NCBI GenBank assembly: GCA_964187785.1 | Contig: OZ076415.1 | Location: 53,320,001 to 53,384,000, forward strand | Length of the DNA stretch: 64,000 nucleotides | Direction: 5' to 3' | DNA from: Amphiscolops sp. MND2022 | Taxonomy: Eukaryota | Shown here: positions 22,661 through 55,112 of the stretch, piece by piece | How positions within the stretch are numbered: position 1 is the stretch's first letter | How the letters are laid out: each line of letters starts with the position of its first letter | The notes under the pieces: generated by a model | Seen by the model: the letters and a program-made list of their open reading frames with translations, nothing else | Database searches by the model: none | What the model was told of the DNA's origin: nothing | Translations under genes and position numbers: made by a program

Positions 22661-22929
22661 TAAAAAACACCTTTCTAAGGGACTTCTATGAAAAAACATT
22701 GGAAATAAATAAATTACATTACAGTATAAGCTCAAGAGAACGCTCAGAATGTAAGAAATGTATCAGGAATCGACTGACGGATTCCCAAATACAATCCATA
22801 ACAAACAGTAGCATCTCGAAATCTTAACTTGGAAAATTTGTAACAAAAAAATAACAAACCTTCGATGCAGATGACATCCTTAAAACGGAACACCCATATT
22901 TCTGAAAAAGTGAAGTACGATTGAAACAA

Positions 22930-23640: not shown

Positions 23641-23904
23641 TGTTAAGAGAACATAAATATCATCTAGAATTTACCAAAATTGGACCTAAAATTATCCTTT
23701 TTCTGACAGTAAATCAATACAGCTACCCCAAAAATACCCGAAAATCTTACCTATCAAGCGGCTTCAGGAAACGCGGTGCCGAAAAGCGTCCTTAATGCTA
23801 CCCGGGTCATTAAGGTAACCCAGACAAACAAAAAAAAATATTAAAGAGACACGATTATAGAAAATCAACCAAGCTGCCGCCGCAATTCGAATTTTTCAGA
23901 CATG

Positions 23905-24046
23905 TCAGTTTTTCTCCCCCATCGATGGACCATCAATGGCCCATCGATGGGCCGTCCATGGGAAAGCTTTTTTGGATCCAAACTTTACCCATGGATGGTC
24001 CATGGGTGGACCATGCATGGGAGTCCATGGGATCTCAGTACGGGTA
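23905..24046 (-). mobile_element. Inverted copy of the CCATCGATGG MITE-like family
   Basis: Ends ...GGGATCTCAGTACGGGTA, whose reverse complement resembles TACCCAAGTTGGGATCCC at 22488. Confidence 0.5.
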
Positions 24047-26044: not shown

Positions 26045-26155
26045 CGAAAAAAATAGAAGAATACAGCCGCAAATAAACCAGGTACTTGGAACAGCTTTAA
26101 ACCAAATTTTACCACAATAAAACTCAAACAAGCACTTTTAAAACTTCGAACATTT
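26045..26155 (+). repeat. Left inverted repeat (candidate TIR remnant)
   Basis: 33-bp core 26055-26087 is the exact reverse complement of 46954-46986, with patchy identity extending ~70 bp inward. Confidence 0.75.
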
Positions 26156-26241
26156 GTTTGCTGTTGGGAATAATTATTTGATGATAAGTAGATATTGTAG
26201 AAAAATAAAGAATATTGTCCCCATACAGAGCAGGGAGTTGG

Positions 26242-27024
26242 CTACTCCCGTGACCAGAAGTCGCGATCGGAGGAGCAAATGTGCTCGAAGTGCCGAGCGC
26301 TCTGAGTGAGATCCATCGGCGAGAATCCAGTGCGAACTCGTCTCAGTTTCGGGAACTTTTTACAGAGCTCATATATTCTTTTTCCCTCCGCGATATTGGT
26401 CTTTCCCAGGAAGACACCGAACTGCTGAAGCTCGCTGGCAATGCGAGCGCAATTTTTTGTTGCGAGTTGGTTCTGGAGCACTTCCACAACCATTCCTCCG
26501 ATCCGATATAAAAAACTTGGTCTATCAGACCTAAATTTTGTTCGCGCTCGAGCTGAACGGTATTTCGGCAGACTTGCCCGAAATCCACAGAACGATCGAA
26601 CAGAATCTCATTTCGCAGCGCAGGTGTTGATGACAGTGACTGCAACCCGGACAAAGGCTTCTCTTTAACTTCGGCCTCTGTCACTTGACGCTTTTGTCTT
26701 TTTGCGACAGGGGCCGCATCGGAGGTGACATCAGGTGACGATACGCTAGTTTCTGTAGCTGCCTCTTCCTGCTGCTGTTCCGAAAGGGGGCTGCAGCAAG
26801 AGCTCGTTCAGAAACGAATTAAACGATGGCAGGCTCATTTCCTCATTGGGTGGGGGAGGAACACGGGAACTTGTTCGCGTGCTCACAGAGAGCATTGCGG
26901 ATATCGAACGTAAAACACTATCAGCACGTTCGAATTGATTTGGTCTCACAACCAAACTCGTTAGCGAGTTTCGCAGTTGCATAATAGCTGCTCTATAGCT
27001 ACTTGGCAACTGAAACAAAAACAA
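26242..27024 (-). pseudogene. Hypothetical Polinton gene, interrupted
   Basis: Adjacent minus-strand ORFs 26746-27024, 26343-26684 and 26242-26493 read as one broken frame. No family recognised. Confidence 0.45.
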
Positions 27025-27265
27025 CGAACATACTGAACAGGTAAATTACTATACTTTACAGTAAAAAACAGTGATATATTATGTAAGTCAAGTTGCACAG
27101 CCAAATTTTACAAACTCTGAGCTCAAATATTATCATGCACTCTCTTGAAAATTGAACTAAAAATCTCAAAATGTCTTCTTCTGTGGCATATGACGGAAAA
27201 CTCGAACTTTGGACAAACTTTTGATTTGTAAGTGACTGTTTTGTTCTATATTAAAAGTGTGCCAT

Positions 27266-27664
27266 CTAAATACGATATATGCCACAGAATTGACTGTCAG
27301 GACGCTGAAGTAGCGTCGAAGATGGCTTGTATTGAAAGATACTTTGATTTCTCAGGCGGACGGATTGACCAACTTTTGCAAACATGTCGGCAAAATACTG
27401 TCGGAAATCTCTCCCGAAACTATCGCAGAGTACAACTGTGTCATTTTTCGAAGCGATTAGTAGCCAGTGTTCACCAGGTTGAGTTGAGGGATCTGTGTTC
27501 ACAATAATGAATCCATTATTTTGCAAGGCAGGAAATGTATCTCGGGCATAACAACCTCGAACCCGGAACTTGAATATTGGATCTTTGTTTATTAGTTCCG
27601 TTAGCGGAATGTTGTCAACCATTGTAAATACTGGAGTTTTTGATAACTTCTCTGTTGCGATCAA
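27266..27664 (-). pseudogene. Adenain-like (C5) maturation cysteine protease
   Basis: IVNTDPSTQPGEHW (His), CDSFG (Asp), Q...SQFCG (Gln/Cys); broken after the catalytic Cys. Confidence 0.9.
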
Positions 27665-27733
27665 TTAGAACGATGGACCACCTCTCACCCAACAAAAGAA
27701 GACGAATTGGTTTGGTTGTCGCTTTAGAGAACT

Positions 27734-28944
27734 TCAGTCTAGACCCAGCCTAGCACCAATGAGTTCAGGACGAATTGTGTTGTCCTCGATGTGGTAATCA
27801 GCAGCTAATTTAAAAATCAGACAGAAACGATTATTGAAATTATCAAGAGTGATACCATTACCACCATGTTCAAAACCAAGTGCTTTCAGAGTGTTGTAAT
27901 AAGATCGAACGAGATTATCATTAAGATGCAAAGGTGTGGCCCCTACAAGTGCTCGCTCTCGATTGATTCGAACAGTCTCGAGGTCCATTTGCTGAAAGTG
28001 GAAAGGATTTGTTTCAAAGTTACCACTGAAGCTAGTTTCCGGCACCAAAAACAACACCAATCCGCTAATCGGTGCACGGTTGAAGAGATCGTCCCTGTAA
28101 TACATAGTGACACCGCTGGAGCTTAGGAAGGATTTGGGGACCATTTCACGAAAATCGTAGTGAGCGGCTTTTTTGGACAACATTCGCTCCATTGTTAGAA
28201 AGGTCTCATTCTTCAATTCCAGCTTGTGAACCAGCAAAGAGGCGCTTACAATTTGTAAGGAGAAAGCACCTGCTGAGTTTTTCGCACCTCCTTCATGGAC
28301 CAACACAAATTGGTCGGGGGCGCGATAAAGTCGAATTCTGACCTCGACACCAAGAAGTAGAAACTTATGATTGTCCATCAAGAAGTTATTGGCAATTCTA
28401 CCGTAAAGACTCCACTTTGACGTCAAAGTTTCACCTAGTTTCTTCCTGTTGCTGAATGCCTCATCTCCACTAATATCTCCAGGATTTGTTTCGAAACTGT
28501 ACCCTTGACAGCTTAGCCAGCCCTTTTACACGACGCGTTATGCGAAAGTTCTGCCTCAACCAACGCTTTGTAAGGACATAAGTTGTTTGCTGACGACACC
28601 GCTGTCCCGTTAACGGACACCTCTACATTTTGGAATAAACTATGCAACAAATTGTTTTCAAAAACGAGTTTCTTATCAGTTACATCGTCATCCTCATCTC
28701 TGCCAACAAATTTCATTTTGACCTCCAGTTTCAGGAAAAGGTTAACCAAGTCTATTACTGTACCTCCAATGTCGGCCCACTGGAAATCAAACTCCCACAC
28801 TGGCCCATCCGCACTGCTTGCAGTGAAATATTCCTCATGATAACCCCGTTGAAAATCGACAAGGATCTCTGAGGTCACAAACAATGACAGTCCTGAATGC
28901 ATGCCAGGTACTGGTGGCTCAGAGTGAACAAATATATCAGGCAT
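27734..28944 (-). pseudogene. Major capsid protein (double jelly-roll, hexon-like)
   Basis: IDLVNLFLKLEVK, NNLLHSLFQNVEVSVNG..VSSANNLCPYKAL, GVEVRIRLYR, FSGNFETNPFHFQ and GITLDNF are typical Polinton MCP blocks. Confidence 0.85.
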
Positions 28945-29113
28945 AATGAAAAATGAAACATCCTAAACAATTGAAAGGTTTTAACTACAGTTATCGTAGC
29001 AAACAAAAGATGGTCAGGCGCGATCAACTAAAGAAGCAAAAAAGTCCTGCCGACTTCTTTTTTTTATTTTGTTCTCCGTTGACGGACTGGTTTCCGTCAG
29101 AAAAAAAAAAGAA

Positions 29114-29520
29114 TCAAGTGACATTTTTTTCTTTCTTTTCAAAAGTTTTCGACGGCGCTGTTTGCTTTTCTTCTTCTTTGGCTTCGAGTTCCTTCTTAGA
29201 TTCGGGTAGCCGCCTTTTTTCCCCGAGGAACATCACTAACACGACCACAGTGACCGAAGCCCATTTGTTGTCGGATAGTTTTTTAAAGGCAATTTTCATG
29301 GCTGCTTTTGGCTTTGTACTTCCGTCCAAAAGGTTTATAACTTTTGAAGAAAAGACATTGCCACAGGAAAACCATAACGCTTAGTCATGGGAATAACGAA
29401 GCCTTTGAGGCCTGCTTTAATTGTGGTACCTATGCTGCTACCGTATCGGCGGTATGGTGATCCTTAGAAGTAATTCAAAGTATGATGTTGCGGTCTGTTG
29501 TGATTAGAGCAGCTCATGAC
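29114..29520 (-). pseudogene. Putative basic core protein
   Basis: Manual translation GSPYRRYGSSIGTTIKAGLKGFVIPMTKRYG..., continuing as DGSTKPKAAMKIAFKKL. It is small, basic and located between the capsid genes. Confidence 0.5.
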
Positions 29521-29724
29521 ACCTCCCTGTTGACTTTTCTCCTAGTACGCAAAGTTAAAGCAACCAGTTTGGTCTGAAGTGAATACAATTATGAAATACA
29601 ATTTTAATAAAAAATAGGCCAATGCTCTAAAAAAACAGTGGTAACAATCATGCGCTTTTGGAACTACAAAATACTATGCAGAGGACATAAATACCATACG
29701 TGTTATAACAATGAAAACGGAATA

Positions 29725-30555
29725 TCAAGTCTTTTTTCTCATTGAAAGTGTCAATGTCGTTCTTTCGACACCAACGAAAGGTATGAGGTCTCCGGTATTA
29801 GTGCGTAACTCTATCAGCAAATCGGTCAGTGTTTTCTTTGATACTTTTTTGAAAACTGGAGGTGAAAAAGACTTGAAGGAACATACACCGTATCCGAAAC
29901 TCCCCCCAGGCTTCTCCTCCATATCTCGCGGCGGCATCTGCTCTGGGTTGAACAAAGGGAAAGTGTTCAATAGAGGCGCTCTACTGTTTCCGACAAACTG
30001 CTGTTCTATGAAATCGCCATACAAGTATACTTGATGCCAATGATGAACATCAACTGGAAAATAGGACGGCATGTCATGAAAATGAGGTGGATGCTTCCAG
30101 GGAGACTTCACCCGCTGGCATCCGAGAATGTGGAAAAGATCGGGTGACATATTTGCAAAATTGACAGTGTTGGGGTAATTCAAAACAAATTTATTTTTGG
30201 CATCGATTTTCCAACTGAAATAAACTTTCAACTTTTAATTATTCCAAGCCGCTCGCGCACGATGAATGATTCTATTCATCTCATCAATGATTTCTTGCAC
30301 GTCGCTATAAACACCCCTCTCAAACTTGCAGTTTTTGATCCACTTCTTTCCACCTACATCCCAATAGAAATCAAAGTAGGAGTCGCGTACGTTGTAAATC
30401 TTCCCGGGATACGCAATTTCGGTGATCGCAACCTCCCACTGTCCATCGAGTTCAATGGAAGTTGGGAGGCATGTCCTGAATGAACCCAGAGTGTTCGACG
30501 GATACACATCAAGGGAAGCATTGGAAGAAAGTGTGATTGTGAAGGTTTCACTCAC
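29725..30555 (-). pseudogene. Minor capsid protein (penton-like, single jelly-roll)
   Basis: FTITLSSNASLDVYPSNTLGSFRTCLP..IELDGQWEVAITEIAYP at the N-terminus; VYLYGDFIEQQFVGNSRAPLL and IELRTNTGDLIPF at the C-terminus. Confidence 0.85.
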
Positions 30556-30901
30556 AGTACCACCAGTTACATTACTTAACCAAATACATAGAGGCTTGAT
30601 AGTAGATTAATTAATTGTGGGTGGTGTAGTAGACTTTGCTAAAGGGTAGCAACTACAGCTCAATTTGAGATACGTTGATGACGCGGCCGGCTTTTATTCT
30701 GTAGATAGTTGAAATGAGTGGAGAGGTATAGATTCCATGGAGTTTACGATATTCTGACTCAGATATTTCTCTCCTTGATATTTCGATGCCTGCTGGGGTC
30801 GAAAGTCATTGCATTCGCTGTGTATGAACATTTTGATTGGTGATGTAGTTGAGACAATCGCGATTAATTACAAGGTCATTGGCCCGTTTTAAAGAAATTG
30901 C

Positions 30902-31359
30902 CTATGTTGGGGTGAATAGAATGTCCAGAACAAGAATATTTTCATAGGGCACCTTTTTCTGATACTGTTGAAGATCGCGGAGAAACTGTAGAATTTTGAT
31001 GCTACTTGTCGAGGTTTCATGAGCCAAATCGTCACTTGTGAAAGAGAACGTAGCATTGGATTTATTGAATCTTATTCCTCTGGTCAATATCATCAGCTCT
31101 ATTAGCACCTGTATTTTTGTCTGCGGATGGGCGATTCATTTTGTGTCTTTTGTAGGTCTTTTTCAGATTCGTTCTCTGTTTTAGATCCCGGTAAAGGTTC
31201 AACAATTCTTTGGAGCCATTCTTTTTCAGGGGCGAGAGGGGCTTCACTGGGGTTTGATTGTTTCACATCGGGTTCAGAGTTCGGCGCTTTTGGAGAATGT
31301 ATTTGGTGGGGCGTGAAAGGTGAAGTATCTGCTGTAGTACTGTTGAGGTCGTTGACCAC
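30902..31359 (-). pseudogene. Hypothetical Polinton gene, frameshifted
   Basis: Overlapping minus-strand ORFs 31102-31359, 31062-31247 and 30902-31108 between the ATPase and the minor capsid gene. Confidence 0.45.
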
Positions 31360-31669
31360 TGAGGTAAGCTCAAGTTACTGAGATAGGGGAATCAAAACAA
31401 ATTCTTCCATTTAAATCGATCCCATTGTCGTACCAAAGTTATTTCGGCTCGGCGTGACCCATTTCATAGCCTCAATGATTTCTCGAATTGCGCAATGCAT
31501 ACTCCAGGTATAGAATAGAGGAGGGCGACATGTTCGGAAAGACAATGATTGGATAGTTTTTGGTCCTGCTTACCTTTATGTCATGGGTGCCAACAGTGTG
31601 ATCTTTTTAGACGCGAGCGTAATTGTTCAAAACTCTTTTAGGAACGTGAAAGCTGGTCGGTAGAACCTT

Positions 31670-32502
31670 TTAGAGATGAAAGGGGATCCGACTGTCTTTC
31701 TTCTCTTTCTTTTGCATAATTTTGGTGGTAGAATGCACTTTCGGTCGATGTTTGTTTTGTTTAATTAGTGTAGTTATGTCATAGCTAGCTCCGCAGATAT
31801 GTGTGCTAAATCTGAGGGCATCATGACAGTCGGTGCTGAGATCAACCAGTAGGTGTCCTTGTTGCACCGATGTAGCCAACTGGTTAGCCTTTTGAAGGAA
31901 CGCAGCATCAGCTAAATCCAGTTCGGACACCAGAAGCCTAAGCTGGCGACCTGTTTATTGGTTACTTGAGAATTATCAATTATGTTATATTTTTGTCAAC
32001 TGTGACACAATATTTACCCTGCTGGTACAATTTTTGCTTTATAAAAACCACATTGATCCCTTTATGTCGACCAGCAATTGCAAGATTAGCGAAGCTTGCG
32101 CTCTGAAAAATTTCTTCGCACGAGTCATCAAAAATTGCCTATACTTTTTCAATTCCAAACGAAGTATGGTAACTGCTTCTCTGTGATTGATGATCCAAAA
32201 GGTTTTGCAAGGCCCGTTTGGTTCTCCGTTTCAACCACGTTTCCGAAGAAAACTTTGCTTGGCACATCTTGAGAAAATTGTTCATAAATTGTTTGCCAGT
32301 GGCGGTAGAAGAGAATAACTTTTTCGAGCCTCGGCCAGAAAATGCTGTCAGAACGACTGGTCAGCATGTTAAGTAAAAGATGTGTTTTACCAGAGCCTGA
32401 TGCGCCACAGATACACATAAAAATGCGATTTTCTGTGGAAATTAATTTTTCATCTTTTGTTTGATCTGTTGAAATTATCAACATTGGGTAACAAGTAAGC
32501 AA
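31670..32502 (-). pseudogene. A32/FtsK-HerA family DNA packaging ATPase
   Basis: Walker A GASGSGKT; manual translation AIFDDS (Walker B) ... AGRHKGINVVFIKQKLYQQGK; GHLLVDLS.. Confidence 0.92.
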
Positions 32503-33472
32503 TGCAAGTGGAAAGAATCATGAAATGAGCAGTTCGTTCTTCGCAAGTCAGTGAGAATACCAATAGCATTCTACTAACGGAGAACAGAACGAGACATATG
32601 ACGAAAAACATTTGTGAGAAGCAAATGAAAAAAGTTTGGCTTACTTGCCAATTGAAGCAGTGCAAAATGTCATAGTCCTCTTCCACGTCAAAGTTTATGC
32701 TGTAGGAAGGATTCGCTCCGTCTTTTGACTTGCTGTAAGGATTTATTGGTGCATTTGATTCTGGCAAATAACTATAGTCAGGATAATCCACGCTTTCAGT
32801 CTGCGTGTCGGGTTCAATCGACAACGCCACCGAAGTGGTTGCAACAGCATGAACCTCAATTTTTCCAAGAATTGCTTTATTTGATTGCTGATCTTGACGT
32901 TGCTGAGGTGATGAAAAATATTTCGCTGTTAATTCCGTTCTTTTTGTGAGTTGATTGAATGATATCTTTAGAGTGCGTTGTCTTTTCTCACTTTGGATTT
33001 TGACAGGTACTCTTGGGGCCGGAATAAGATAGGCTAAAGTTGAGCTCAGAATGCTCATATAAACTGATGTATCGTGACACGAATTGTCATTTATTTCTCG
33101 GCTCTGTTTTGTGCTTGCTTCAGTTGGGGATGTGATAAATTTCAACAGACAGAATGCATCCAAAAAGAAAATGATAGCAAGTTGGTTCAAAAATACAGCT
33201 TGAGAAAACGGTAAGTAACACGATGACTGCTCAATGGACTCACAAAAAGACTCGCATTGTCGATCGCTGGATTTGATCCTCTGACTCTGACTGTGGAGGT
33301 CCACCAACTTGTGAGAGGTTACTTTTGATGACCCAGGGGAATTGTTACCAACATTTCGTTCACAAACACGTGATATGTCGTTCTTTTCTAATCTCGTCTC
33401 TAATTGTGTCCTTGTCTGTTCCCTCGTGTACAAGTTTGTATTGCAACCATGCATCTTAAAAGCAAAAAACAT
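32450..33472 (-). CDS. Hypothetical 340-aa Polinton ORF
   Basis: Long open frame co-oriented with the viral genes. No motif recognised. Confidence 0.4.
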   Translation of the reverse strand: MFFAFKMHGCNTNLYTREQTRTQLETRLEKNDISRVCERNVGNNSPGSSKVTSHKLVDLHSQSQRIKSSDRQCESFCESIEQSSCYLPFSQAVFLNQLAIIFFLDAFCLLKFITSPTEASTKQSREINDNSCHDTSVYMSILSSTLAYLIPAPRVPVKIQSEKRQRTLKISFNQLTKRTELTAKYFSSPQQRQDQQSNKAILGKIEVHAVATTSVALSIEPDTQTESVDYPDYSYLPESNAPINPYSKSKDGANPSYSINFDVEEDYDILHCFNWQVSQTFFICFSQMFFVICLVLFSVSRMLLVFSLTCEERTAHFMILSTCIAYLLPNVDNFNRSNKR

Positions 33473-34153
33473 TTTTACTCGAGAATCTTTTCACAATGGC
33501 TTCTTTCGTATAAGCTGAGACAAAGCAGTAGTGAGAACCCAAAAAGAAACACATTATCCAAAGTTAAAAAATTTTGTCAATAGTATTAGTGGGCACAAAA
33601 AAAAATATTTTGAAACAAACGGATAGGAAGCAAACACACAGTTAGTAAAAAGTTTGACTAAAAGCACAACTGTGGACAACCATCCAAAAATACTACCAAA
33701 CTCTTTAACACAAAAAAAACATGAAGCAGGAACCATGTCAAACAGCTCGTTGTCGATGTAATCGGAGCTACTGGTGTTACCACCAGCGCCGACAAGTTGT
33801 CAATTGTCGAAGCAATGGATGCCATTGAACCAGAAGGAGGTTGATCTTCGTCTTCAGTTACTTCACTGTCAAAGTCAAAGTCACCCTATCATCGCTATTG
33901 TTGCCACCTTGCCCGCTGTCCGTCTCTGACTGCTGGTCAACAGGAGCAAGTGTATTAGCCGCCGGAAGGTAGCGCAAGTCTGATGATGTTGAAGATCGGC
34001 CACCAGCGATAGTTGATGAATTTCAGGAGCTGCTTGGCTGGACTGAATGGTTGTTAGTGAGCGTACTAGCAGCTCGATTGGCGTCAAATGTATTTAGGTC
34101 ATGCTGTGTCATCCCATCAAAACTAGATGTGATCGACTGCGGGACATAACTTC

Positions 34154-34732
34154 TCAATGTGGATTTATAGAAGTTCTCGGCACACAGCAAGTATTGTTAC
34201 ACCAGATACCGGCAATATTCATGAAATGATTGGATCCGTTGGTATGCTGTGATGTATAGTCCCTCGTCAAGCATGGCCTTTCTCTAACCAAAGTGTTTTG
34301 GGCTGAATAACCGTAATTTGCCGTATTGTTAGCAACATGATTGGACGTGAAGCCAGGGGTTTGGAGTGACATTGTGTTACTGGGCTGGGGGGCTATTCCG
34401 CTTTGTAGATGAGAGAGAAGAATTTGTGATGGCCGGCTGTACAATGGGATACCCCGTTGATTTCTTGTGTTGTCATTCTGGGCATTCGTGTAGTTACGAA
34501 ATGTCAAAATATTCATTGCAAAAGGTTTGCTGTGAACTAAGCTGCAACACTCTTCCCAGCTCATATCAAATTGCTGCGTGCGACCGCCAGAATTCAATGG
34601 CACAAGCCCATTTAACCCTCTGGCAGGTTCTCTAACTAGAAACACTCTGGGGTAGAGCACTTGTTGTGGGTTGTGCAAGTAATTGTTGGGTTGTGTGGGA
34701 GGGTTTTGGTAGAACTGCAATGCAATGCGCAA
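34154..34732 (-). CDS. Hypothetical N/Q/P-rich Polinton ORF (192 aa)
   Basis: Open frame co-oriented with the cluster; low complexity. Confidence 0.4.
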   Translation of the reverse strand: MRIALQFYQNPPTQPNNYLHNPQQVLYPRVFLVREPARGLNGLVPLNSGGRTQQFDMSWEECCSLVHSKPFAMNILTFRNYTNAQNDNTRNQRGIPLYSRPSQILLSHLQSGIAPQPSNTMSLQTPGFTSNHVANNTANYGYSAQNTLVRERPCLTRDYTSQHTNGSNHFMNIAGIWCNNTCCVPRTSINPH

Positions 34733-34844
34733 AAAATCTGATTATGGAACATAAGCAGATATGGCTTTTGGATGTCAATCGCTGGAGCAATTATTTGAGA
34801 AATGCGTCTAAGTATCTGAAATGGGTGGAATACCTGAACTTTAA

Positions 34845-35657
34845 TCAAAAGAAGAAGAGAAAACCTAAAAAATGCTCTAGCCAAAAAACATTTGGTAGTA
34901 ACTGAAATGGCAGTATATAGTTGTAACCGGGGCCTTTCTGACGAGACCAATAAAAATGGCCATAAGCATCATGGAAAATAGCGTGTAATTTTAAAATAGA
35001 TGATATAATTGAAAAAACGTAATGCGTTCTGACGTTCATCCCAGGTCCAATTGAACCACCCCAAGGTGCACAATGCGACAAATCACCCATATTGAGAATT
35101 TTGTTGATAGCACATTGATCACAATTTTCCTTGACATGTACAAGTATTCGTTTACACAATAATTACCGATAAAAACAGAATGTGATTGAAAGAGAAACGT
35201 CGGGGACGGAATTGTCGAGTTGTAGGTGAATTTTCCTACAAATACCATGGTGATCGATATTGCTTTCGTATTTTGCTGCAATCTCTTTGAGGCTACAATC
35301 AGCCATTAAATCATAGTTAGTTTTTTTGCAATGCCTGTGGAATTTGCTGGCATTTTCAAAAAAGAACTCAAGTTTTGACAAAGTCAGCTCAAACATGTCT
35401 GGCCGATCCAATGTATTAAAAGTGAGCAAAATGGCATTCTCCAAAATACGCACTACTATATATTCGAGTACGAGCTTGTGAAAGTAAAACCAATGATAGC
35501 CGATTTTACCAAGCAAACATTGAGGAAATATACGCTGGGACGCGCTTAAGTTTTGAAAGAAAAACAAAATAGACAACATTTTATTACAAGTTACCACTAC
35601 AGACAACGTATTTACCACTACGGACTTTGATGCATAGCGATACAGTGAAGTTCCCAA
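34845..35657 (-). pseudogene. ORF with C-terminal PLA2-like motif (parvovirus-type candidate)
   Basis: 35163-35657 and 34845-35159 are in frame, separated by one stop. Motif GGSIGPG-x22-HDAY. Confidence 0.4.
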
Positions 35658-35851
35658 AGAACACGGGCCTTCATTTTAGGGGCTCGCTTCGGAAAAAGCA
35701 TTCTGTTTGCATAGTCTGCCGATTGTCTTTTTCGCTCCATTTTCATTGCGTGATTGAAGACATTTCCAACGATTGTTGTGAAACCGTCATCATCAGCAAC
35801 AACAAAGCTGGTCCAAAAGGAGTAAGGACACCATACATTTCTCTGTTGCAC

Positions 35852-36452
35852 TTAAAAGCTGCCAAATTCTTCCTTCTTGTTTTTCAAGTCGATTCTGAAA
35901 ACGTTTTGTATTTGGCGAACAACTCCTTCAAGCTGCCAATTCATGTTGGTCTCTCTAGTAGCAACTGGGTCAAGAGGGTCTCTAAAAGTGTCAACAGGTA
36001 ATTTTGAGGAGGAAATGGTCGGACTATTCGAATCAGCCCTTTTTTCCTTGACGCTCAGGTTGCCACTGTTTCCAGAAACAGAAACTTGTGCAGCCTTTTC
36101 CACTTTTATACGCTTAGGAGATGGATTCGTTCTTGCAACGGATTCTACAGAGACATCGCAGGATACCTTAAAATGTTGTCCTGTAGTAGTTACTGCTGGT
36201 ACATGGGCTAAAATGTGAAAATGATTGTCGATAGCGGAAGCGTCTTTTGGTTCCGGCAAAATGTAACACCGTCCAGAGGGGAAACCTGCCATTTTGTATT
36301 TGCGGTGACACATCACAAATGCAACGCACTTTATCAAGTTTGTAACTGCATTGTTTGTAACAGTTGGTGAGATGTGACCCTATTAGATAGTCGACATTTC
36401 TGACAGCCAACATCTCACATACTTTTTCCCGTACGTACAGACATTGTTTCAC
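35852..36452 (-). pseudogene. Hypothetical Polinton gene(s)
   Basis: Overlapping minus-strand ORFs 36168-36452 and 35852-36337. No family recognised. Confidence 0.35.
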
Positions 36453-36858
36453 TGCTTTGTCTTCAAAATTTGGGTTCGGCTAAAAAACGAAATGGGCATA
36501 AAAGGACGACGATTTACGTCGGAATTCCATTGACAAAACGTCTGAACACAGCAGTTCATTAATTGGGGCAGTTTTCGTCATTAACCAAGGAGGATATTTG
36601 GTCCAGATGATCAATCGAGATTTGGACACAAATTATGTTTTCAAAAGCAAATCGATAGCAACACAAAAAAGACGATTGTTTTACAAACTTGTTAAAATTA
36701 ATGTATGTCTAAAATAAGAAGTTATTGTTCAACCGACGAAACCAAACGGTGTAGATTCTCCGAAATTTGTGTTGAAAACACGTTTGTTAATTGTGACTCG
36801 GGCTCGTTTTTCACAAAACTGGTTTTTCAGTTGGCCTGTTTGAACACAACGACTCAGA

Positions 36859-39800
36859 CTACTGTAAGGACTTCGCAATTCTCTCGCCAAGCACGGGTTT
36901 TCTGAAGGTATCAGTGTTGAACGTTTTCTCTGTGGCCCTATTCAGCGTCACACGCTTTATTTTGAAAATATTATACTCCAGTCCTGTTTTAACGTTGTGA
37001 CCAGACAAGCAGTAGAACTTTGGCCCTGCACTCCAAAATTTGTCAATCAAGTCTTCAGGAGGCAATTTGTCGGTCATTTCGCCCAGTCCATTCCCAATTA
37101 GGATATCCGGTGATTTTGACCAAATGCATAATTTTGAAATGTATTTTGCGAGCATGTGCAGTTGTGAAGGCAGCAAGAATCACATTTGTTTTCCGTGGAA
37201 CGTCAATATATTGTAGCAGCATCAAATCATCGCCTACTAGAGTCGCATCAGTAACTCTTTTTGTTCGCGATGTGAAATAGTCCACGACCTCTCGATAGTT
37301 GTTGACGTACATCGTTTTTGGCATAATATCTCGCACTCCGAGATACCCCCTTAAGCTGTTCAGAAGTATTTTAGCAAAAAAGCGTAGACCTTCGTTTTTC
37401 TCCATCTTCGCAGGGTCAAGTGAAAATCCTTCTTTTTTCTTCATCTCCTGAAGGTAACGCCTCTTATGCTGGCATATCTTTTCTGTCGATGAATTAGAAT
37501 TCGGGTTCTCTTCACAGCAGCATGTTTCTGGCCAACCAGACGCCTCCATTTTTATTTTCAAGAAGTTATCGATATATTCTTTGAACAATGTAACAGACTT
37601 TTTTGTTCTCGGCCAACTGCAAATCTCTGCTACATCTATCACTCGATATCCATTTTCCAAAGCAAGCTTAACTTCTGGGGTAACAAATGTGCCCCAGAAA
37701 CTCCTGTCTTCTACTTGGCGATGGACACATTTCTTTGTTGTCAAGTCCACATTCGTTTTGTCAGGCATGCTGGATCTTTCTTAAACGCAACGTCGACATA
37801 AGGTAAAAAACAGTTTCGATTGAAATTTGAATGGTAAGATGTTTAGATGTATATCAGACGGCGGCAGTACTTGGCACTTTATCAGACCAAAAAGATCCTC
37901 GTTTTTCAGTTTTAACTCAACATCAGATAAGGGGAACTCCAAAAGCGTTCGTTGCGAAAACTTTCGGAGCCTCTGTGGTGGAGGCAGAGAATGTGATTGT
38001 TATCCTGTCAACCCGATCCAAAAATTTGATCTCCACAACCTTACTCTGAGCTACATTCGCATCCTCGTCAAAACAACATGTTTGACAAAGTTTTTCATTG
38101 GCTGAGTTGCTGTTATTGCGAGCTTTTCGCAATCGATTGTTGTTGCTGCTCTGTAGCAATCAGAATCAAATCACGAGGCCCTGAAGGGTCCACTGACCTC
38201 AAATTCACATAAGGGTACAGCGAACAATAATCCACTTACTTGAAGGTCTGAGACTGTAGTTGTCGAGACTACTTCATGACAAAATTTTCTGTTTTTCCTC
38301 CAAAAAAAGCGTCACGAGGTTGTAACGAATGCTGTCATTTGACATCTTTTGCAGTAGTTTGATGTTACTCAGCCGATAGAATAAATTTTGATGGATTAGA
38401 CGACTTTGTTCGATCTGTCCGATGTCATCGGAAATGCTCGAGAGTGAGCTGCTGAGTCTCGTTGCTACTGACATCGGCAGATGCGTCCATGTTGTATCAA
38501 TTCCTTCTTCGTCTTCAGAGATGGACAGCTCCAATAGTTTTTTAAACTCACACTCCCAAATATACTTTGCAATAACAAAATATACTATGCACAACAAAAC
38601 GTAAGTTATCTGTCGTTGTGAATACTGGGCCGTTCGAAATTTGAGAAGATAGCCAGTCCAGTCTGTCCATAACTGTTGTGGTGTACAAATCAAGCATTGT
38701 TGTAGCATTTCGTTTCTTATTAACGTCATTTCGGTCTGTATAACAAGAAGGACACCCGTGGAAGTAACATCTACAAAACTCCAGAACTTTCGACTGGTTT
38801 TTGTTTCTGGACAATCTTCTATATGCGGTACTCTTTGAGTGAAAAGTACGTTTGTACAAAAGAAGTCCGTCTACTTTGAATGATCCAAGTATCTGCTCCT
38901 TACATCTGCCTCGCTTCAATCCGCCGCCTGACCTATACAGACGAATACTGAACTCGTTTGACTTCTGATCATTCGCAACTTGATCCACCTACGACAACCA
39001 AACGGCGACCGGGAAAGACGTTAACTCATTGCCCGTGTAACCGCTCTGAGGGAGGATTGCAATGGAGTCCTTCGGCATGAATAGTTGTCTATAAATGTAA
39101 TTACATGCTGATGCTGCTGTGCAAGCAACTTCGAACGGATCTATTACGCTGCACACTTTCCTGATTAACGTTCTAAACTCCAAAAACCCTTCTTAGCGTA
39201 GTTTAACATCTGCCTGACAGTACGACACGAGTTCTTGTTGAAAGTCGTAAACGAGGTTATTAATTTTATAAAGCTCGGTCTGTGCAGTGTGCCATGCCAA
39301 AAACGTGCTCACCGTTTGCTGTCCTTTCATCGAATTCAAAGCGAAACGGCAAGCGGGTGGAATTTGGCCTTCTTTGAGTGCAAACTCTTGGCATTTTTCT
39401 TGGTCGTTTCCTGCATTGAAGCAGCTAACATTGCTTTGTGTAGCTAGGCAGTGATTGCAGTCGTTGCAAAACACTTTGCACAGACAGCAGTTTTCCACTT
39501 TCTCGCATGTTTGTAAACTGTGAAGCTTTGAAGTAGCAGCGGGATACATGGCCTCTTTAAATGTCAAAAGTGAAGAAAGTATCCTTTTTTCACTTCCTTG
39601 AGGTTGAAAATTTTGGGAAATTTTGATAAAGGTATCGGGTTGAAAAGATAAGAGTCAATGAATCGTTTATTCCCCACACGCATTGACACAACCTTGTTAC
39701 CTCTGAGCAAAATTTTGGGAACATATTTGTGTTGTTTGTAGAGCCATTCCAGGATTGGTAAGAAATCGAACCCACTGCCAAAATGGGCAATAAACCATTC

Positions 39801-41600
39801 CGTTCGACGAACCCTTTCAATACTAGCGAAAACATCCTCACAAAATTCGTTTATACAATCGTAGCCAGTTTAAATACCTTCATCACCTGTCAAAGACTCT
39901 GCTGCAAGGAGAATTGGTTTATGTAGGCCTTCATTGCCACAACTTTGGTCAGTTTCTATGTCTAGAACCCAAATTTTGTCACCCGAGGTAGCTCGTTCAA
40001 AGTTATTTGCAGGCTGGTCGCGAGACGTAACAGTACCATCGTCATGGACTGAAGCGCTGCTAATTTTCTTGCGTTTGATTTGCGTCATGGGATATTCTTT
40101 CTCAACTTCTTCACGATAATTCTCTCCCCCTAATAGTTCACAGTCACGAAATTCGTTACTGGTATCACGATCCGGTGTTTCTCGCTCTACGCACTTCTTC
40201 GGTTTTTGTACGAAACATTGATATTCCGATGAAGGCGAAGAGTGTTTTTACGGTCTGACAATAAGTAATGAACGGAGCATATAGAACAGCTTTTTTTTGA
40301 ACAAATATGAGTAAAGAATGCTTGCTTAGGTACGGTATTGTCGTGTGTAGGGCACAAGGTGTACAGATGACACACCCCGTAAGTAATATGGCAATCCAGA
40401 CACTTTTGGCTTCGTACTCTGAGCCTGCATCGATCACACTGGAAAAGCGGTGACTGGTGAGGATTCTTTGACAAGTCATTGGACGAGGTAGTCCAATTGA
40501 GCTGCGAATGGTTGATGAAACCGGTCCTATTGAGACAGCCAGGCTGCCGACACAGCAAACAACCACTGGCAGAGCATAAATGCTTCACTGTGGAAAAGGA
40601 CTTGTGACAACTGTAACAGTAGTGGCGACCATCGAAAAGTCCTTCCATTGAGGTAGTCAAATCTACATGTCGGAATGAGCATCATACAAAAGGTCAATTT
40701 TCTGCTGTGCTTCCTGATTATAACATTTAAGAAAAGTACCCATAAAATTGCTATCGTAAACAGATAAACAAAAGTTTTTCAACACTTGCGACTGAGACAA
40801 AAATTCTAATTTTTCTAGATCAAGAGGTTTACTAGAAGCAGGAGAGTTTTGAGCTGTCTGATAGTGAAGCGACCCAGTAGATGAATTGTCATGGGCAGAA
40901 GTGGGAAGTCTTTTTGAGGAAGCACCACCAGCCAATATTGGCTGCAAAGCGCCTTGGGGGATGCTTGGATCAGATTTCAAAAGAGTTATCAAATGCTGCA
41001 GTTCACGGGTTTGCACGGAAGCTCGATCCAGGTGCAAGTTTTTCGTTCTTTTTCTTTTATTAGGCAGGCGCGGAGATCGCTCGTTAACTTTGATGCCAAT
41101 TGCTATAGCCCTCAAAAGACAATTGTTCTGGTTACTTTTGATTACAATGATTGACTTCTTTTGTTTCGTGAAGAGCTTGATATCGGGATCAGTCCTGCTC
41201 TGTATGCCTCCAAGCCGGTTCCCACCCATTGTTGGTAAAGAAATACTCAAAACGTTGACTTTGATATTGTTGCTAATATCAATTTACTCGTTCGAATTAA
41301 CGACCCTGTCAATTTCATTGAGAATCAGTTCGGCGTTGAAAGCCTCGGCGGACGAGAATGGGATATGAATAGGATAGTTGAGGGTAGGCGCATTCAATAC
41401 CAATCGAATTCTGTGTGAATGAACAGGAAGTTCTTGTTATATCTCAGATATCAATTTGTTGATGATGTGGTTGAAAATCTCTTTAATTCGGTCCATCACA
41501 CTTTCAATGTCCGTGAAATACACTTCATAGTCTCTTCTGGCCGCTCGCAACAGACTACGTCTTTGTGGCATTCGATTGATACTATGGTACCGCTCAGGAT
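36859..41600 (-). pseudogene. polB: Protein-primed family B DNA polymerase (pPolB), heavily disrupted
   Basis: SIIVIKSNQNNCLLRAIAIG; Cys-rich N-terminal region; WVLDIET (ExoI); EFCRCYFHGCPSC insert; IWECEF; PRDAFFGG; VDYCSLYPY (motif A); KILLNSLRG (motif B); FWSAGPKFY. The YxDTDS motif C appears deleted near 37120. Confidence 0.95.
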
Positions 41601-42303
41601 TGAACCCCATAGCAAAATCTACAACGAACGCAATGCAACAAGAATTAAACGTTTCACAGAAGCATTTAAAACTACTGTAAGATTGATGAAGGTTTCAAAT
41701 GAAAAAAACAAAGTCAACAACATATTTTATATGAAGGTAAATATATAAATGGTCCGGAAAAAAACTTGTATACGCAATACGTTTAAAAAGGGGTTAGCAG
41801 AATCGAAGTACTGCATGACATAAATGCCTACTTAGAGGTCAATATGTGAAACGTATTGAGAAGTTGGCCAATATGTAAAAATGTCACACTTAATGCATGC
41901 GCAAGAACAAACAAACACTTGCACAACAAAACAACGAGCGATCGTTAGAAGACATTTAGTTCATGAAAACTTCATCATCATCCTCAGCGCCCGGTATATG
42001 CGTACCAACTTCACCGTTGAACATAAAGTCTGGTTTCTGAAACAAATTTTGGTGTTTTACGTCGGCCTCGATCGTTATGTTCGCAGTGCCGCCATCGGAC
42101 AAGCAGTCGTCCCTGACATTTTGAGCCCGCTTCTTCGATGTGCTTGTGGTTGATTAGATTTTCGCGCCATTGACCTTGGAAAACCCTTTCTTGCCAGTAG
42201 GCTTCTTTCCAAAAAGTGAGATTAACGTGGGTTCCCGGAACCCACCCGTAAGAGCTTCCTCCGTTGCTCTGTTGAACTCCTGCGTCGTCGCAGATTTCAC
42301 CCC

Positions 42304-42768
42304 TTATGATTCCAATGCCGCCTTGTCACCTAGACCAAGCAAAGCCACAAACTCAGTCATCTCTTCAACAGTGAACGAAAAGTGACCCTGCCGCTGCCAC
42401 TGGCCGCATTGAAAATCGGGTTTGAATAGTCGCAGCCCAATGTAAGTCGCCGTTGACATCTCCGAAGAGAGGTTGTTTGGGTAGCACTTCGATCCGATTC
42501 TAACCCAGCGATTATGCGACTTGGCAATGTCCCACCACTTGTCGTGGCTGGACTCGTCTTGCTCCGGTGAGATTCGCCAGGAGGACACAACAGACTTTAT
42601 ATCGTTCCCAACAATCCACGGAGTCTTTTTCTGGGAACGCTTACGCACAACACTGTTCAACCAGTTCATCTTTTTTTCGTCAAAACAAGGGGACTCTGAA
42701 ACGAAAAAAGTACTGTGAATCTGAACGCTTGAAAATGTAGTAAAAGATGTAATCTGCGACTTTAACAA
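42304..42768 (-). CDS. PC4-like ssDNA-binding protein candidate
   Basis: WDIAKSHNRWVRIG...YIGLRLFK...QWQRQGHFSFTVEEMTEF resembles the PC4 fold pattern by eye. Confidence 0.4.
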   Translation of the reverse strand: MLKSQITSFTTFSSVQIHSTFFVSESPCFDEKKMNWLNSVVRKRSQKKTPWIVGNDIKSVVSSWRISPEQDESSHDKWWDIAKSHNRWVRIGSKCYPNNLSSEMSTATYIGLRLFKPDFQCGQWQRQGHFSFTVEEMTEFVALLGLGDKAALES

Positions 42769-43171
42769 AAAAACTGAACTGTGAAATGAAGGAAGAAAAG
42801 ATTTTGAGGGGCAACGAATACATATGAAGTTTACTGCAATTCGGACAAGATGGGAGAAAACAATTTCAAGCCTCTAACTTTTTATGTCGTCTGCCAAAAA
42901 AACAATGTCTAGACTGAATATGTGAAAAAATAAAAAACTAGTTCCGGTTACAAACATTTTTTAAATGAAAACTGATTCTTTCTCACTCCTTGGAAAAAGA
43001 GGAATGAAATTTAATTATAGGCAGTTTTTAAAGACCATTCAACGCTTCAAAAAACATCTGCTACAACAAAAAAGAACTGCTTTTCAGCGCAACGCTTTAC
43101 TACATTTTACAGAGCTTGCTTTGGCATTCTGGTAACTCTGTGGGCTTCCAAGAGAGATTTTCGGGAAACCA

Positions 43172-44203
43172 TCAAGGGGTGATGTTCATCAGTGACCGTT
43201 GAACCTTTTGAACAATTCTGAAAAAAGAATTTTTCACCAGATGTTCAACAAATTTGTTGGGCCAATGACAGCTAAACAAATATTCAGCCTGTTCTTGATA
43301 CATAATCAACAGACACTCTGGCACAAGTCTAGACAGGGTTTTTGGCTGATTGAAAACCTCTTGTATCATCCATGATTCCGTAGTTTTTGTGAAGTAAATT
43401 CTAATCTCATAAGGAAGGTCACTGTGGAAACAGATTGTCTGCAGAAGTAATTTGTCGTTGAGGCCAAATCGCAGCACACCCTGCTCAAAATCGACAATGA
43501 TAAGAAATTCAAAGATTTTCTCCTCGTTATTGCTATTGAGCCAAATAGTCTCCAGTTTCTCTAGGCAGTCGTTTGGCAAGAAAAAAAGTATCATTTTCAA
43601 CCAACTGCATTTCTGCAACATCCCAGTGAAATTTAACAGGGAATCCATTGTTGACAGATTCTACCGGCAGGCTGCTCAGACCAAAGATGAAGCGTGTTTC
43701 CCCGACCAGCAAAGATGGGAAATCATCTATCTTCGCGGGAATCTTGAAGACCCTAACCGCTTTGTCGTTGTGGTTGTTGAAAATTATGTCAGGAACTGCG
43801 ACATCATGATTGAAGATCCCATCGTCACTCCACTCGTCGTCCAAATCCAAATCACCACCGGGGAAATCTTTTTCATTTGCGTCGTAATCAATACAAGGAC
43901 TAAATTGTTTAATGGTCGCTTGTAGTGGTAATCCATTACCTCGTATTTTTTCCATTTTATCGGCGTCACGTTCGTGTTTGAACTGAGGAAACCTCGGCAA
44001 ACGTGATTGACGTCCTCGTCAATCGATTGACCGGGAGAAAAAACTTTGCTGTAATCTTTAACTATAGCGCTGTAACCAAGGAAATTGTTCGTGAACGGAT
44101 CAACGTACGGCGTGATGACCAACACGTGGAGACTTGACCGTCGACCTCTTCGATAGCAGTCGTCTAGAATTTGAAAAGAGTCCCGCTGCTTTCGGAACTC
44201 CAT
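43172..44203 (-). pseudogene. Hypothetical Polinton gene, frameshifted
   Basis: Overlapping minus-strand ORFs 43784-44203, 43533-44000 and 43172-43648. Confidence 0.45.
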
Positions 44204-44504
44204 CTTCTGAACAAACAGAAAAATCCCGCCGTTTACAAAATCTACAATTTTGTAGTCTCTTTAGCTGTTTTATTACTGAAACTATTGTTCAAATAAAGGT
44301 CCTGTTAGTGGATATTGATCGGGCCGGACATTGTCGACAGAGTGTTTAGTGATGAAGGTTTGGACCGCTGGCAGGGTCGAGGTTCAACTTTCTGGAAAAG
44401 ATACCACTGTGATTGTCGATGTATTCAGCATCACCTTGCCTTTCCAAGAGGCAGGCGACAATGTCTAGCAAGTCATCATAACCACGACACCAACAAGACT
44501 TTTT

Positions 44505-45905
44505 TGTTTGAACATTGCCACATTTCCCAGGGAGCTTGGCAAAAGGAAAAAAGAAAAATCCGCGCGACGCGGATTTTCTCCGGCCACCCACTGGGTCGTG
44601 AGAGAAGTCCTACGTACGTGTATGCACTTGTATTGTACATTGGCAATGCGCAAACAACACAAAAACAACATTGCCCCATTGCCCAGGGATCTTGGCAAAA
44701 GGAAAGAATATAAATCCGCGCGGCGCGGATTTTCTCCGGCCAACCACTGGGTCGTGAGACAAGTTCTACGTACGTGTATGCACTTGTATTGTACATTAGC
44801 AATGCGCAAACAACACAAAAACAACAATGACCCATTGCCCAGGGAGCTTGGCAAAAAGAAAAAATAAAAATCCGCGCGGCGCAGATTTTCTCCGGCAACC
44901 TACTGGGTCGTGAGACAAGTCCTACGTACGTGTATGCACTTGTTTTGTACATTGGCAATGCGCAAACAACACAAAGACAACATTTCCCCATTGCCCAGGA
45001 AAGCTTCGCAAAAGGAAAAAAATAAAATCCGCGCAGCGCGGATTTTCTCCGGCCACCCACTAGGTCGTGAGACAAGTCCTACGTTCGTGTATGCACTTCT
45101 ATTGTACATTGGCAATGCGCAAACAACACAAAAACAAAATTGCTTCATTGCCCAGGGAGCTTGGCAAAAGGAAAAATTAAAATCCGCGCGGCGCGGATTT
45201 TCTCCGGCCACCCACTGGGTCGTGAGACAAGTCCTACGTACGTGTATGCACTTGTATTGTACATTGGCAATGCGCAAACAACACAAAAACAACATTGCTT
45301 CATTGCCCAGGGATCTTGGCAAAAGAAAAAATAAAAATCCGCGCGGCGCGGATTTTCTCCGGCCATCCACTGGGTCGTGAGACAAGTTCTACGTACGTGT
45401 ATGCACTTGTATTGTACATTGGCAATGAGCAAACAACACAAAAACAACCTTGCCTCATTGCCCAGGGAGCTTGGCAAAAGGAAAAAAATCCGCGAGGCGT
45501 GGATTTTCTCCGGCCACCCATTAGGTCGCGAGACAAGTCCTACGTACGTGTATGCACTTCTATTGTACATTGGCAATGCGCAAACAACACAAAAACAAAA
45601 TTGCCCCATTGCCCAGTTAGCTTGGCAAAAGGAAAAATTAAAATCCGCGCGACACGGATTTTCTCCGGCCACCCACTGGGTCGTGAGACAAGTCCTACGT
45701 ACGTGTATGCACTTGTATTGTACATTGGCAATGCGCAAACAACACAAAACAATTTTGCCCCATTGCCCAGGGGCTTGGGAAAAGAAAAAAATAAAAATCC
45801 GCGCGGCGCGGATTTTCTCCGGCCACCCACTGGGTCGTGAGACAAGTCCTACATACGTTTATGCACTTGTATTGTACATTGGCAATGCGCAAACACAAAA
45901 ACAAC
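44505..45905. repeat. Tandem array, 9 x ~157 bp, each with hairpin AAAATCCGCG-CGG-CGCGGATTTT
   Basis: Hairpin cores at about 44556, 44712, 44867, 45026, 45180, 45335, 45485, 45638 and 45795. Confidence 0.95.
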
Positions 45906-46060
45906 GTTTTTCACAAGGTCAACTCTTGTATGTGCCTCGAACTTGCCAAAAAATAACAAAAAATTTTTTCGACCTGTACCCTCGTTACAATAAGAAATTC
46001 TATTGACGTTACCAATTTTTTGTTCCTTTTTTTCGAATGATTGTGCAACTTGACTTTTGT

Positions 46061-46465
46061 TCAAGCTTCGAATTTTCGCGGAAAAAAACACCCCAATCGC
46101 TTGAAAGGGCGCAAATAAAAAAATGTCAAAAATATATGAATATAGCTTCAAAATACCTCGGAAATTGAGTCGTGGGGGTCCTCCGATGTATAAACTTCTT
46201 TTTCTTCGTACGGCGGCGGTAAAACGAAGATTGGGGTGGTGAGCAGAGGCGACTGCGAGTTGGCGTTGATGATTCTAGAATCAAACAGTTTGATTTGCAA
46301 TCTTGTGAAAATATAATAATACTTAATTTTGCGTGAGTAATCAAACGAGATAATAACTCACATTTACATTTCTGGATTATTCTGGGTGGTGTTGGTGGCG
46401 GCGATGTTGGTGTTGTTGGTGGCGGCGATGCTGGTGGTGTTGGTGTTGTTGTTGTTTTGAGACAT
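46061..46465 (-). CDS. Putative spliced ~93-aa gene with PPxY motif
   Basis: Exons 46466-46368, 46301-46157 and 46099-46061 joined by GT-AG introns of 66 and 57 nt; an upstream 74-nt intron lies at 46540-46467. Product MSQNNNNTNTT...ILQIKLFDSR...VLPPPYEEK... Confidence 0.5.
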
Positions 46466-46744
46466 GCTGTAACAGAAAAAAGTAAAAAAGCTTGCTATTT
46501 TTGTTGATTGGAATTGGAAATTCAGTTAGAAAATACTAACATTTGCTTCACAATTTTGTATCGTTGTAGACGATTGTTTAGTAGAAACGTTGGCGTTGAA
46601 GAAAGAGCTGTTGTTGTTGATAAGGAGTTGATGATGAATAGTTGTGCAATTGAAAAATACAACAGATGAGTGTGTGAGCCAATTCTATTGGCTCAGAAGG
46701 CACACGAAAGCAAAAAAATGCCGCAGGTGGGAACGGTGCGGAAA

Positions 46745-46790
46745 CATCCGCGCTCGTACAGCTTGCGCGGATGCGCGGGGAATACCGCGC
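46745..46790. other. GC-rich double hairpin near the right end of the element
   Basis: CATCCGCGC-n11-GCGCGGATG (9-bp perfect stem) followed by GCGCGG-GGAATA-CCGCGC. Confidence 0.75.
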
Positions 46791-46874
46791 ACGACCGCCA
46801 GCGCGTGCGCAAATTAAATTGAAAGCAGCCACGCGTGTGCGTATAGGAATGAATATTGAATGTTCATTTCCTTC

Positions 46875-46995
46875 ACAGTGACTTTCAAAAGTATTTATAA
46901 ATGTGCTTGTTAAAACTTTTTTGAATATCAAATAGTTTGTTTAAAATTGTTCAAAGTACCTGGTTTATTTGCGGCTGTATTCTTCTGAAATTATT
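46875..46995 (-). repeat. Right inverted repeat (candidate TIR remnant)
   Basis: AAGTACCTGGTTTATTTGCGGCTGTATTCTTCT (46954-46986) is the reverse complement of 26055-26087. Confidence 0.75.
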
Positions 46996-48790: not shown

Positions 48791-50321
48791 TCAGATTTCA
48801 ATACAACTTCTATTTTGAAACTGTCTGGAAAGAACGCAACGGAACACCAATTTTGAGGGGAAAATGCATGTTACTAGCATGACGAAAAACTAGATTAGCG
48901 TCAATATACAAATATATAAAAAAAGTATCAAAGAGTTAGCACTCTACCAGAAGATAACATGATTCAAATTTACTGAAGCTACAACTCTATGCTTCACGTT
49001 TCTACACAATGATTGTTGACTGACATTTGAAAAACCAGCGGCAAGTTTTTGAAATAGGGAAATTTTCGGGAGGACTTCACTGTGAAAGAAAAACGTTTTG
49101 GAAAGCTATAGCTATCAATGCTTTCATTTTTTCAACTCAAGAAATTTGGTTTTTCGATCTTTTCGCATTTTATCGAAAGACACTATAACCGTTACGAACT
49201 TAACAATTCACTATAGAGACGCATGAAATCAAGATGCAAGCGTTTTTCCAAGTCACACTATTTGTCTATATCAAACAGCCTTGTCCTAGAAACAAATCTC
49301 TATCTCTCTGCAACAACAGCAGATTCGGGAATTCGTGAGAGGAAAACGATTCGCTGAGTTCAACGCCAGACTTGTCGATATGATTTGAGTTACACAGAAA
49401 AAATGCGCATCGTTTGAACGATTTAATTGCGAATCTCTATCAATTGATTACTGAATCACTAATATTTATTTTCAGTTCTAATCTTGAATTTAGATGTTTG
49501 AAGAACTTTTATAGTTTTACGTTTATTTAAGTTTTCAAACTACTTTTGTAGTCCTGTACCCGATTAATGTACCCGATATAAACAATTTGTGTTAAAAACA
49601 AAAACAAACTTCTGCTAAATTGCGATTTTTTCTAACGCGAAAATGTTAGCAACTGAACGAGACACCCGCTGATCATCGAAATATTTCACGCTATTATTTC
49701 TCGTAGAAACAACATAAAGACTTGCGGTCCCCAAAAAATAGGCCACACAAAAGCTTCACAATTTGCACAAAAAACATGCTTCACAAAAATGCAAAACATG
49801 AACAATTTTATCTTTTTGGTTCATTTTAGGCAGTTTAATTTTCGTTTTCTTAAGGAAATGAAAATCTGTAGTTTTAGCGTTTTACAACGATATCCGTTTG
49901 AACGTACTAGATTGCTGGAAAATACTTTCCACTTAACCTAGCGGTTAGCGTGCGTGTCTCTGCGCCTAAGCTGGGGCACCAAGCAGGGTAAGTGTGCTAG
50001 AATCCTCCGCAGAACCAAAACTTATGTTCGCAAACATTGCCGAGACCGAAGGGTCCCCTTGAGGTTTTTTCGAGCACTGTGCATTTTTTGCCCAATTATT
50101 GAACAGAGATGGTCTAAGACCTGAAGTAGTTTCAGAGGTGCCAAAGATTCCAACCTTTGAATCTTTAGCAAAAGTTAAAATCGGTAACAGATCAAAGGGT
50201 CTCCAGGTTGGATTTATTTCTGCACATTGCGGAGATTTTCATTGTTCAATGGGTATTTGTCTTCAGTTTCATGCTAAATTCAGTTAAAACCAGACGTCTA
50301 ATTGTCTAACTTAACAACAAC

Positions 50322-55099: not shown

Positions 55100-55112
55100 C
55101 TTGGCAAAATGT

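Follow-up and report, generated by a model that had tools for sequence, protein, structure and literature searches.

A decayed Maverick/Polinton-type copy without a detectable integrase in Amphiscolops sp.

The window analysed here, a stretch of 64,000 nucleotides from Amphiscolops sp. MND2022 (contig OZ076415.1, positions 53,320,001 to 53,384,000), contains an element that runs full length, end to end, from 26,055 to 46,986 (20,932 bp, ~20.9 kb) and has the replication genes, virion genes and termini of a Maverick/Polinton, whereas no integrase was found in it. We regard it as probably the remains of a Maverick from which an internal deletion removed the integrase. This reading is favoured because the AG-ended repeats are intact, the genes stand in canonical order with a short gap at the integrase position, the polymerase gene carries a separate deletion, and the copy has decayed in comparison with its relatives. 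Judged from its sequence, it would be unable to replicate, package or integrate alone.

The ends of the element and the adjoining repeats are as follows:

26,055-26,146, plus strand: left terminal inverted repeat, starting AGAAGA; 33 nt perfect and 92 nt alignable with the right arm
46,889-46,986, minus strand: right terminal inverted repeat, placed by alignment with the left arm; the plus strand closes with TCTTCT
26,049-26,054, plus strand: left flank, candidate decayed target-site duplication with 46,987-46,992, sharing 4/6 or 4/5 bases
44,511-45,895, no strand: tandem array of a 155-bp unit in 8.9 copies, 90% alike (tandem-repeat scan)

Terminal inverted repeats that begin with AG had not been found in the preliminary description; they are present at both ends, reading AGAAGA inward from their first bases at 26,055 and 46,986. 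The arms are perfect over the first 33 nt and can be aligned over 92 nt on the left and 98 nt on the right (92/98), and a repeat scan reported them as 26,055-26,110 and 46,931-46,986. With a 25-nt probe of the inverted repeat, the two termini were the sole matches, against an expectation of 0 (100 shuffles). A 6-bp target-site duplication had likewise been reported missing. A perfect one is indeed absent, but the flanking bases agree imperfectly, at 4/5 or 4/6 positions, which is compatible with a decayed target-site duplication and falls short of proof; Mavericks usually have a 6-bp duplication, and a range of 5-8 bp has been described (bioRxiv 10.1101/2023.08.22.554363). Vertebrate Mavericks span 12.7-24.6 kb, their repeats measure 46-1,447 bp, and the end motifs listed for them are (AGT)2, (AG)3 or (AC)3A (PMC8097293); the AGAAGA end of the window copy shares the AG start and differs from the motifs listed in that passage. 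When the empty site was reconstructed, the reading frame across the flanks was open for 21-23 plus 43 codons in a single frame, which is uninformative. No Rfam family was matched within 25,000-48,000. The 155-bp array lies in the right arm of the element, ~1 kb from the inverted repeat, and is a source of spurious ORFs on both strands.

Between these ends, the following genes and gene-sized intervals were assigned, given here in the order of the minus strand:

41,700-44,400, minus strand: decayed accessory ORFs, no family at curated cut-offs
36,700-41,700, minus strand: protein-primed DNA polymerase B (pPolB) in several frames, limits approximate (Pfam and tblastn); motif C region gone near 37,115
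32,485-36,700, minus strand: decayed accessory ORFs, no family at curated cut-offs
31,670-32,484, minus strand: A32/FtsK-type packaging ATPase with frameshifts and stops (Walker A; Pox_A32 at E = 0.016, under the cut-off; tblastn)
30,806-31,412, minus strand: PZ-position gene, broken, with no family match; named by synteny alone, from its position after the ATPase
30,556-30,805, minus strand: canonical integrase slot, ~250 bases without an assigned gene, flanked by the PZ-position and minor capsid genes
29,725-30,555, minus strand: putative minor capsid (penton) gene with one internal stop at 30,235-30,237 (position and an N-terminal motif)
29,014-29,517, minus strand: basic core-like (PW-position) gene, broken, Lys/Arg-rich, between minor and major capsid genes; named by synteny
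27,618-28,944, minus strand: major capsid protein (MCP) in three frames, with breaks near 28,520 and 27,745 (homology to intact relatives)
27,250-27,622, minus strand: putative adenovirus-type cysteine protease, shortened by a stop (position after the MCP, and motifs)

All the core genes, which encode pPolB, the ATPase, the two capsid proteins and the protease, lie on the minus strand, in line with the earlier claim that they share one strand. The pPolB is present as a pseudogene without motif C. Pieces of it match DNA_pol_B_2 (PF03175) with E-values of 1.9e-09 and 4e-06, and five Polinton-like polymerases align by tblastn in three frames across 36,865-41,463. The motifs on either side of motif C are separated by 20 residues and a frame change, versus 38-41 residues in 4/4 homologs listed, and no DTDS-type motif C is matched in six frames; the deletion of this motif, already proposed from the sequence, is thus borne out. 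Within the polymerase, at 38,551-38,988 (minus strand), a Cys/His pattern suggests a putative VSR-type nuclease insert. Such inserts are known from some Polinton polymerases (nematode preprint). The packaging ATPase is recognisable by its Walker A motif, the weak Pox_A32 match and tblastn, in which all three Polinton-like ATPases matched it (E 1e-4 to 0.013). About 8 kb of accessory sequence has no family match. One small accessory ORF in it, at 34,848-35,090 (minus strand), matches nothing in Pfam or PHROGs; its His-Asp motif resembles that of the phospholipase A2-like domains of adintoviruses.

The element had also been credited with a complete virion module. As an inventory of genes this stands, but every core gene contains stops or frameshifts. 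The MCP pieces abut without spacing, separated by two frameshifts, and introns, considered as a cause of the breaks, were ruled out since the pieces abut directly. A structure predicted for an intact relative of 90% identity (low confidence, pLDDT 48) matched Sputnik with Z 11.9 and the mavirus MCP with Z 11.6. Each of the best 10 PDB matches of this model is a jelly-roll capsid or scaffold protein of a virus, aligned over the N-terminal half with Z 8.4-11.9; among them are virophage proteins, the poxvirus scaffold and further proteins of the double jelly-roll fold. On this model, the MCP is of the double jelly-roll type. For the minor capsid and protease genes, position and motifs fit the Maverick type, with no library match in Pfam, PHROGs or PDB sequences. 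The motif of the putative minor capsid protein is N-terminal, and those of the putative protease are the His, Asp, Gln and Cys motifs in its translation. The first matches of the minor capsid in the Atlas (0.97) were unnamed and Nucleocytoviricota clusters of low recognition value and serve as a lead. The core-like gene gave no family match.

An integrase or recombinase was sought by several routes. Among 250 stop-to-stop ORFs of at least 42 aa, none matched an rve or tyrosine-recombinase family in Pfam (E ≤ 0.05, among the matches listed, up to five families per protein; one tandem-repeat ORF had seven), and a Gypsy ORF outside the element, which served as a positive control, matched rve at 1.3e-05. 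A single polymerase motif search yielded nine distant loci that were used as seeds and controls. We built a Polinton-integrase profile of 124 sequences from a seed at a distant locus and the best 120 of 2,514 relatives, all from sources outside the window's own family. Across 858 six-frame chunks, the best domain E-value inside the element was 4.7, and outside it the same profile detected two Gypsy integrases (2e-10 and 0.054). When the 124 integrases were used as tblastn queries, matches inside the element were scattered (best E 0.023), three queries matching their core weakly at 31,180-31,450 (E 0.17-0.54). In a frameshift-tolerant profile scan, no score inside the element exceeded 22 bits, against 27-55 bits for the Gypsy controls, and no catalytic motif pattern of an integrase or a tyrosine recombinase occurred in six frames. 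The earlier statement that no ORF has an rve or tyrosine recombinase motif therefore withstood both the ORF survey and the profile (best E 4.7 inside, 2e-10 for the control). A supporting argument, that the remaining gaps are 0.7 kb or less, is weak because a gene in decay may no longer form an ORF; scanning with profiles takes its place. As judged by a profile drawn from other families, the absence of an rve integrase from this copy is confirmed, and no tyrosine recombinase was found by Pfam or motif patterns. The description of the element as an integrase-less virus is thus established for this copy alone and is no more than a possibility for its family. Compared by the lengths of its contigs, an integrase cluster (P0201) gave no sign of co-location with the MCP contigs listed, and it did not match the element.

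The position of the missing gene can be read from gene order. Intact vertebrate Mavericks have the modules pol-atp-(pm)-pz and int-mCP-PW-MCP-pro, which lie on one strand in Xenopus tropicalis (PMC8097293). The window copy has pol, accessory ORFs, atp, the PZ-position gene, a gap of ~250 bases, mCP, core, MCP and pro, so that only int is missing from the canonical order, and both neighbours of the gap retain their ends. In this slot (30,556-30,805), word, profile and hmmsearch scans found no significant remnant of an integrase. With one frame, a word search gave 0/17 relatives, a comparison against 1.84 billion representatives gave one match, a repeat protein, and the Atlas returned unnamed clusters. 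All three frames scored without significance against the profile. The best local match to the full profile, just past the catalytic core, reached 16 bits, as did 20 of 144 sequence windows; with the C-terminal part of the profile, the score of the slot was reached by 3/144 windows, and its hmmsearch score was below zero. In a global fit to the C-terminal sub-profile, the slot was equalled by 11-13/283 windows and 2-4/200 shuffles; it fitted an unrelated N-terminal sub-profile about as well (17-23/283 windows, 2/200 shuffles), and with a shorter C-terminal sub-profile 106-110/283 windows scored as high. Intact integrase seeds, themselves part of the training set, score 47-172 in this fit. An impression by eye of integrase ends, which would have placed an integrase stump in the slot, was dropped as evidence, as word, profile and representative searches lent it no support.

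To place the copy among its relatives, we used the MCP. The larger MCP piece has 40 relatives among 1,137 candidates. The nearest cluster has 32 members; of the 15 listed, nine have the full length (444-445 aa) and lie on contigs of 21-665 kb. Distinct loci may be fewer than 32, since some contigs are near-paired in length and one locus was perhaps assembled repeatedly. Eight of the intact relatives are 95-99% identical to one another and the ninth is 89-92% identical to them, while the window MCP shares 88-90% identity with the eight and 84% with the ninth. Because the relatives resemble one another (95-99%) more closely than they resemble the window copy (88-90%), we take the latter as a decayed member of a young family; on these protein comparisons, the family appears to keep recent intact capsid genes, and the window copy appears to be older or to have decayed faster. 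Other MCP lineages, at 47-83% identity, are present in the same protein collection. The only named relatives among the 40 come from the acoel Convolutriloba macropyga (~47%). Its 'F54H12.2-like' proteins (XP_075255191.1 and two more) are homologous to the three window pieces, with 45-53% identity, but represent a lineage other than the window's family, as far as proteins alone were compared. MCP queries confirmed no related locus in viral, metagenome or genome contigs, nor did the inverted-repeat probe or three motif patterns. By exact look-up, 7 of 19 window ORFs occur in the protein collection, all as singletons.

Compared with known systems, the window copy resembles the Maverick/Polinton elements of animals, both the adintoviruses of Starrett et al. 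(PMC8502044) and the vertebrate Mavericks (PMC8097293). It shares with them a PF03175-type pPolB, a packaging ATPase of the A32 type, an MCP of the double jelly-roll type, inverted repeats that start with AG, the module order and a length of ~21 kb, and its putative minor capsid and protease genes fit them in position and motifs. It differs from them in having no rve integrase, no perfect 6-bp duplication and no unbroken gene. The definition of Polintons combines pPolB with rve, and rve occurs in nearly all animal elements of Maverick/Polinton type longer than 10 kb in one survey (both PMC8502044); in corals, the vast majority of elements have rve, and 52/4,862 have a tyrosine recombinase (PMC11131425). 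By its sequence, the window copy descends from a Maverick, but for want of an integrase it would be classed as a defective derivative rather than a full member. It shares the absence of rve and the presence of a virion module with Polinton-like viruses of the tyrosine recombinase or helicase types; unlike these, it has pPolB together with Maverick order and ends, and neither a tyrosine recombinase nor a helicase replicase was found. Degraded Maverick fossils (PMC8097293) are comparable in that they, too, carry frameshifts and stop codons and have lost a core gene while being full-length in other respects. In that study, 96% of vertebrate loci are degraded, and two bird loci each lack one core gene, pro or atp; the window copy differs in lacking int and in having inverted repeats that are still recognisable. 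As a decayed copy, the element is thus ordinary, since such relics are a known kind and make up most Maverick loci. Beyond this, the window suggests a Maverick family that is young and multi-copy, in a host that is probably acoel-like. For acoels, the literature searched gives Mavericks only in a table of repeats (4.5% of one genome, with Gypsy at 28.2%; PMC6451197), and nothing was found that joins Maverick, Polinton, integrase and acoel.

How the integrase was lost can be framed as follows. A Maverick/Polinton genome would have been inserted whole by an rve integrase acting at the AG...CT inverted ends. The copy would then have decayed through the substitutions, frameshifts, stops and internal deletions visible in it, one such deletion having taken out motif C of the pPolB. 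A further deletion, of ~1 kb, would have cut the integrase, entirely or for the most part, out of its slot, where none is present now; it may have occurred in the copy itself or in a defective parental element that was mobilised in trans. Speaking against this reading, by sequence comparison, are the lack of a remnant in the slot scans, slot scores that are only slightly raised, and the imperfect target duplication. The lack of a remnant, with both genes beside the slot keeping their ends, would also suit a family that has spread recently, as a whole has no integrase, keeps replication and virion genes as well as Maverick ends, and uses for its insertion, in trans, the integrase of another Maverick family of the host; the MCP lineages at 47-83% identity are possible helpers if they share that host. 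We consider this unlikely, as the window copy lost other essential sequence by deletion (pPolB motif C), the short gap sits at the normal int position, and in the literature searched we came across no animal family of such anatomy that is autonomous but for the integrase. Were intact copies also to lack the gene, they would represent an integrase-dependent yet integrase-less viral lineage, a link from Mavericks to non-integrating relatives, which would matter because Polintons are defined by their integrase.

The preliminary description had left the choice between loss by deletion and passive capture. Deletion fits the ends, the gene order and the decay, whereas capture of an integrase-less linear virus through DNA repair is very improbable: it would explain a copy with no integrase or recombinase and no perfect target duplication, but it had rested on absent terminal repeats, which are in fact present. 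Moreover, both AG-starting termini are preserved to the base, the flanking bases agree at 4/5 positions, and the 32-member MCP cluster on many long contigs suggests repeated insertion, even if some members are one locus. It is harder still to credit that an integrase or recombinase hides among the decayed accessory ORFs, beyond the reach of a profile built from distant integrases. The ~8 kb of unassigned accessory sequence would leave room for one and the weak core matches of 3/124 queries at 31,180-31,450 could be read in this way, but the same profile detects the far more distant Gypsy integrases (2e-10; 27-55 bits versus at most 22 inside), and catalytic patterns are absent in six frames. 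Least credible of all is an assembly error, by collapse or by a chimera of repeat copies. The region is rich in repeats and the family is multi-copy, but substitutions and stops are spread over the element as in true decay, and the slot has no direct repeat among the 20 largest of 23 repeat families. Deletion from a decaying Maverick copy therefore remains the reading we prefer.

The flanks of the element are rich in Gypsy, as is the acoel genome mentioned above (PMC6451197). On the left, a Gypsy-type LTR element spans ~4,170-20,970, with gag, RT and integrase at 5,410-11,858; its first part is duplicated ~14.8 kb downstream (96-97% identity), and it contains internal tandem repeats of 40-50 bp. 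Between it and the Maverick copy, a 176-bp tandem array at 22,492-23,961 has 11-bp CCATCGATGG-type repeats on both sides and is possibly a small non-autonomous element. On the right, a second Gypsy-type element (50,320-56,270, minus strand) has direct repeats 5.7 kb apart (96%) and RT, RNase H and integrase frames, and a foldback-like element at 58,502-58,950 has 97-nt inverted arms made of 14-bp tandem units. A 307-aa ORF in a single frame at 59,414-60,337 (minus strand) is probably a host gene; by eye, its product resembles a secreted PAN/C-type lectin protein. At distant loci, a Polinton-type pPolB is represented by an isolated fragment of 317 aa (L001:9941-10891, the same in L002 and L008), which lacks motif C in the matches listed and sits among ankyrin-like genes on giant-virus contigs of 339-733 kb, and in a Polinton-like contig the rve integrase is split into two ORFs (L005:5232-6364).
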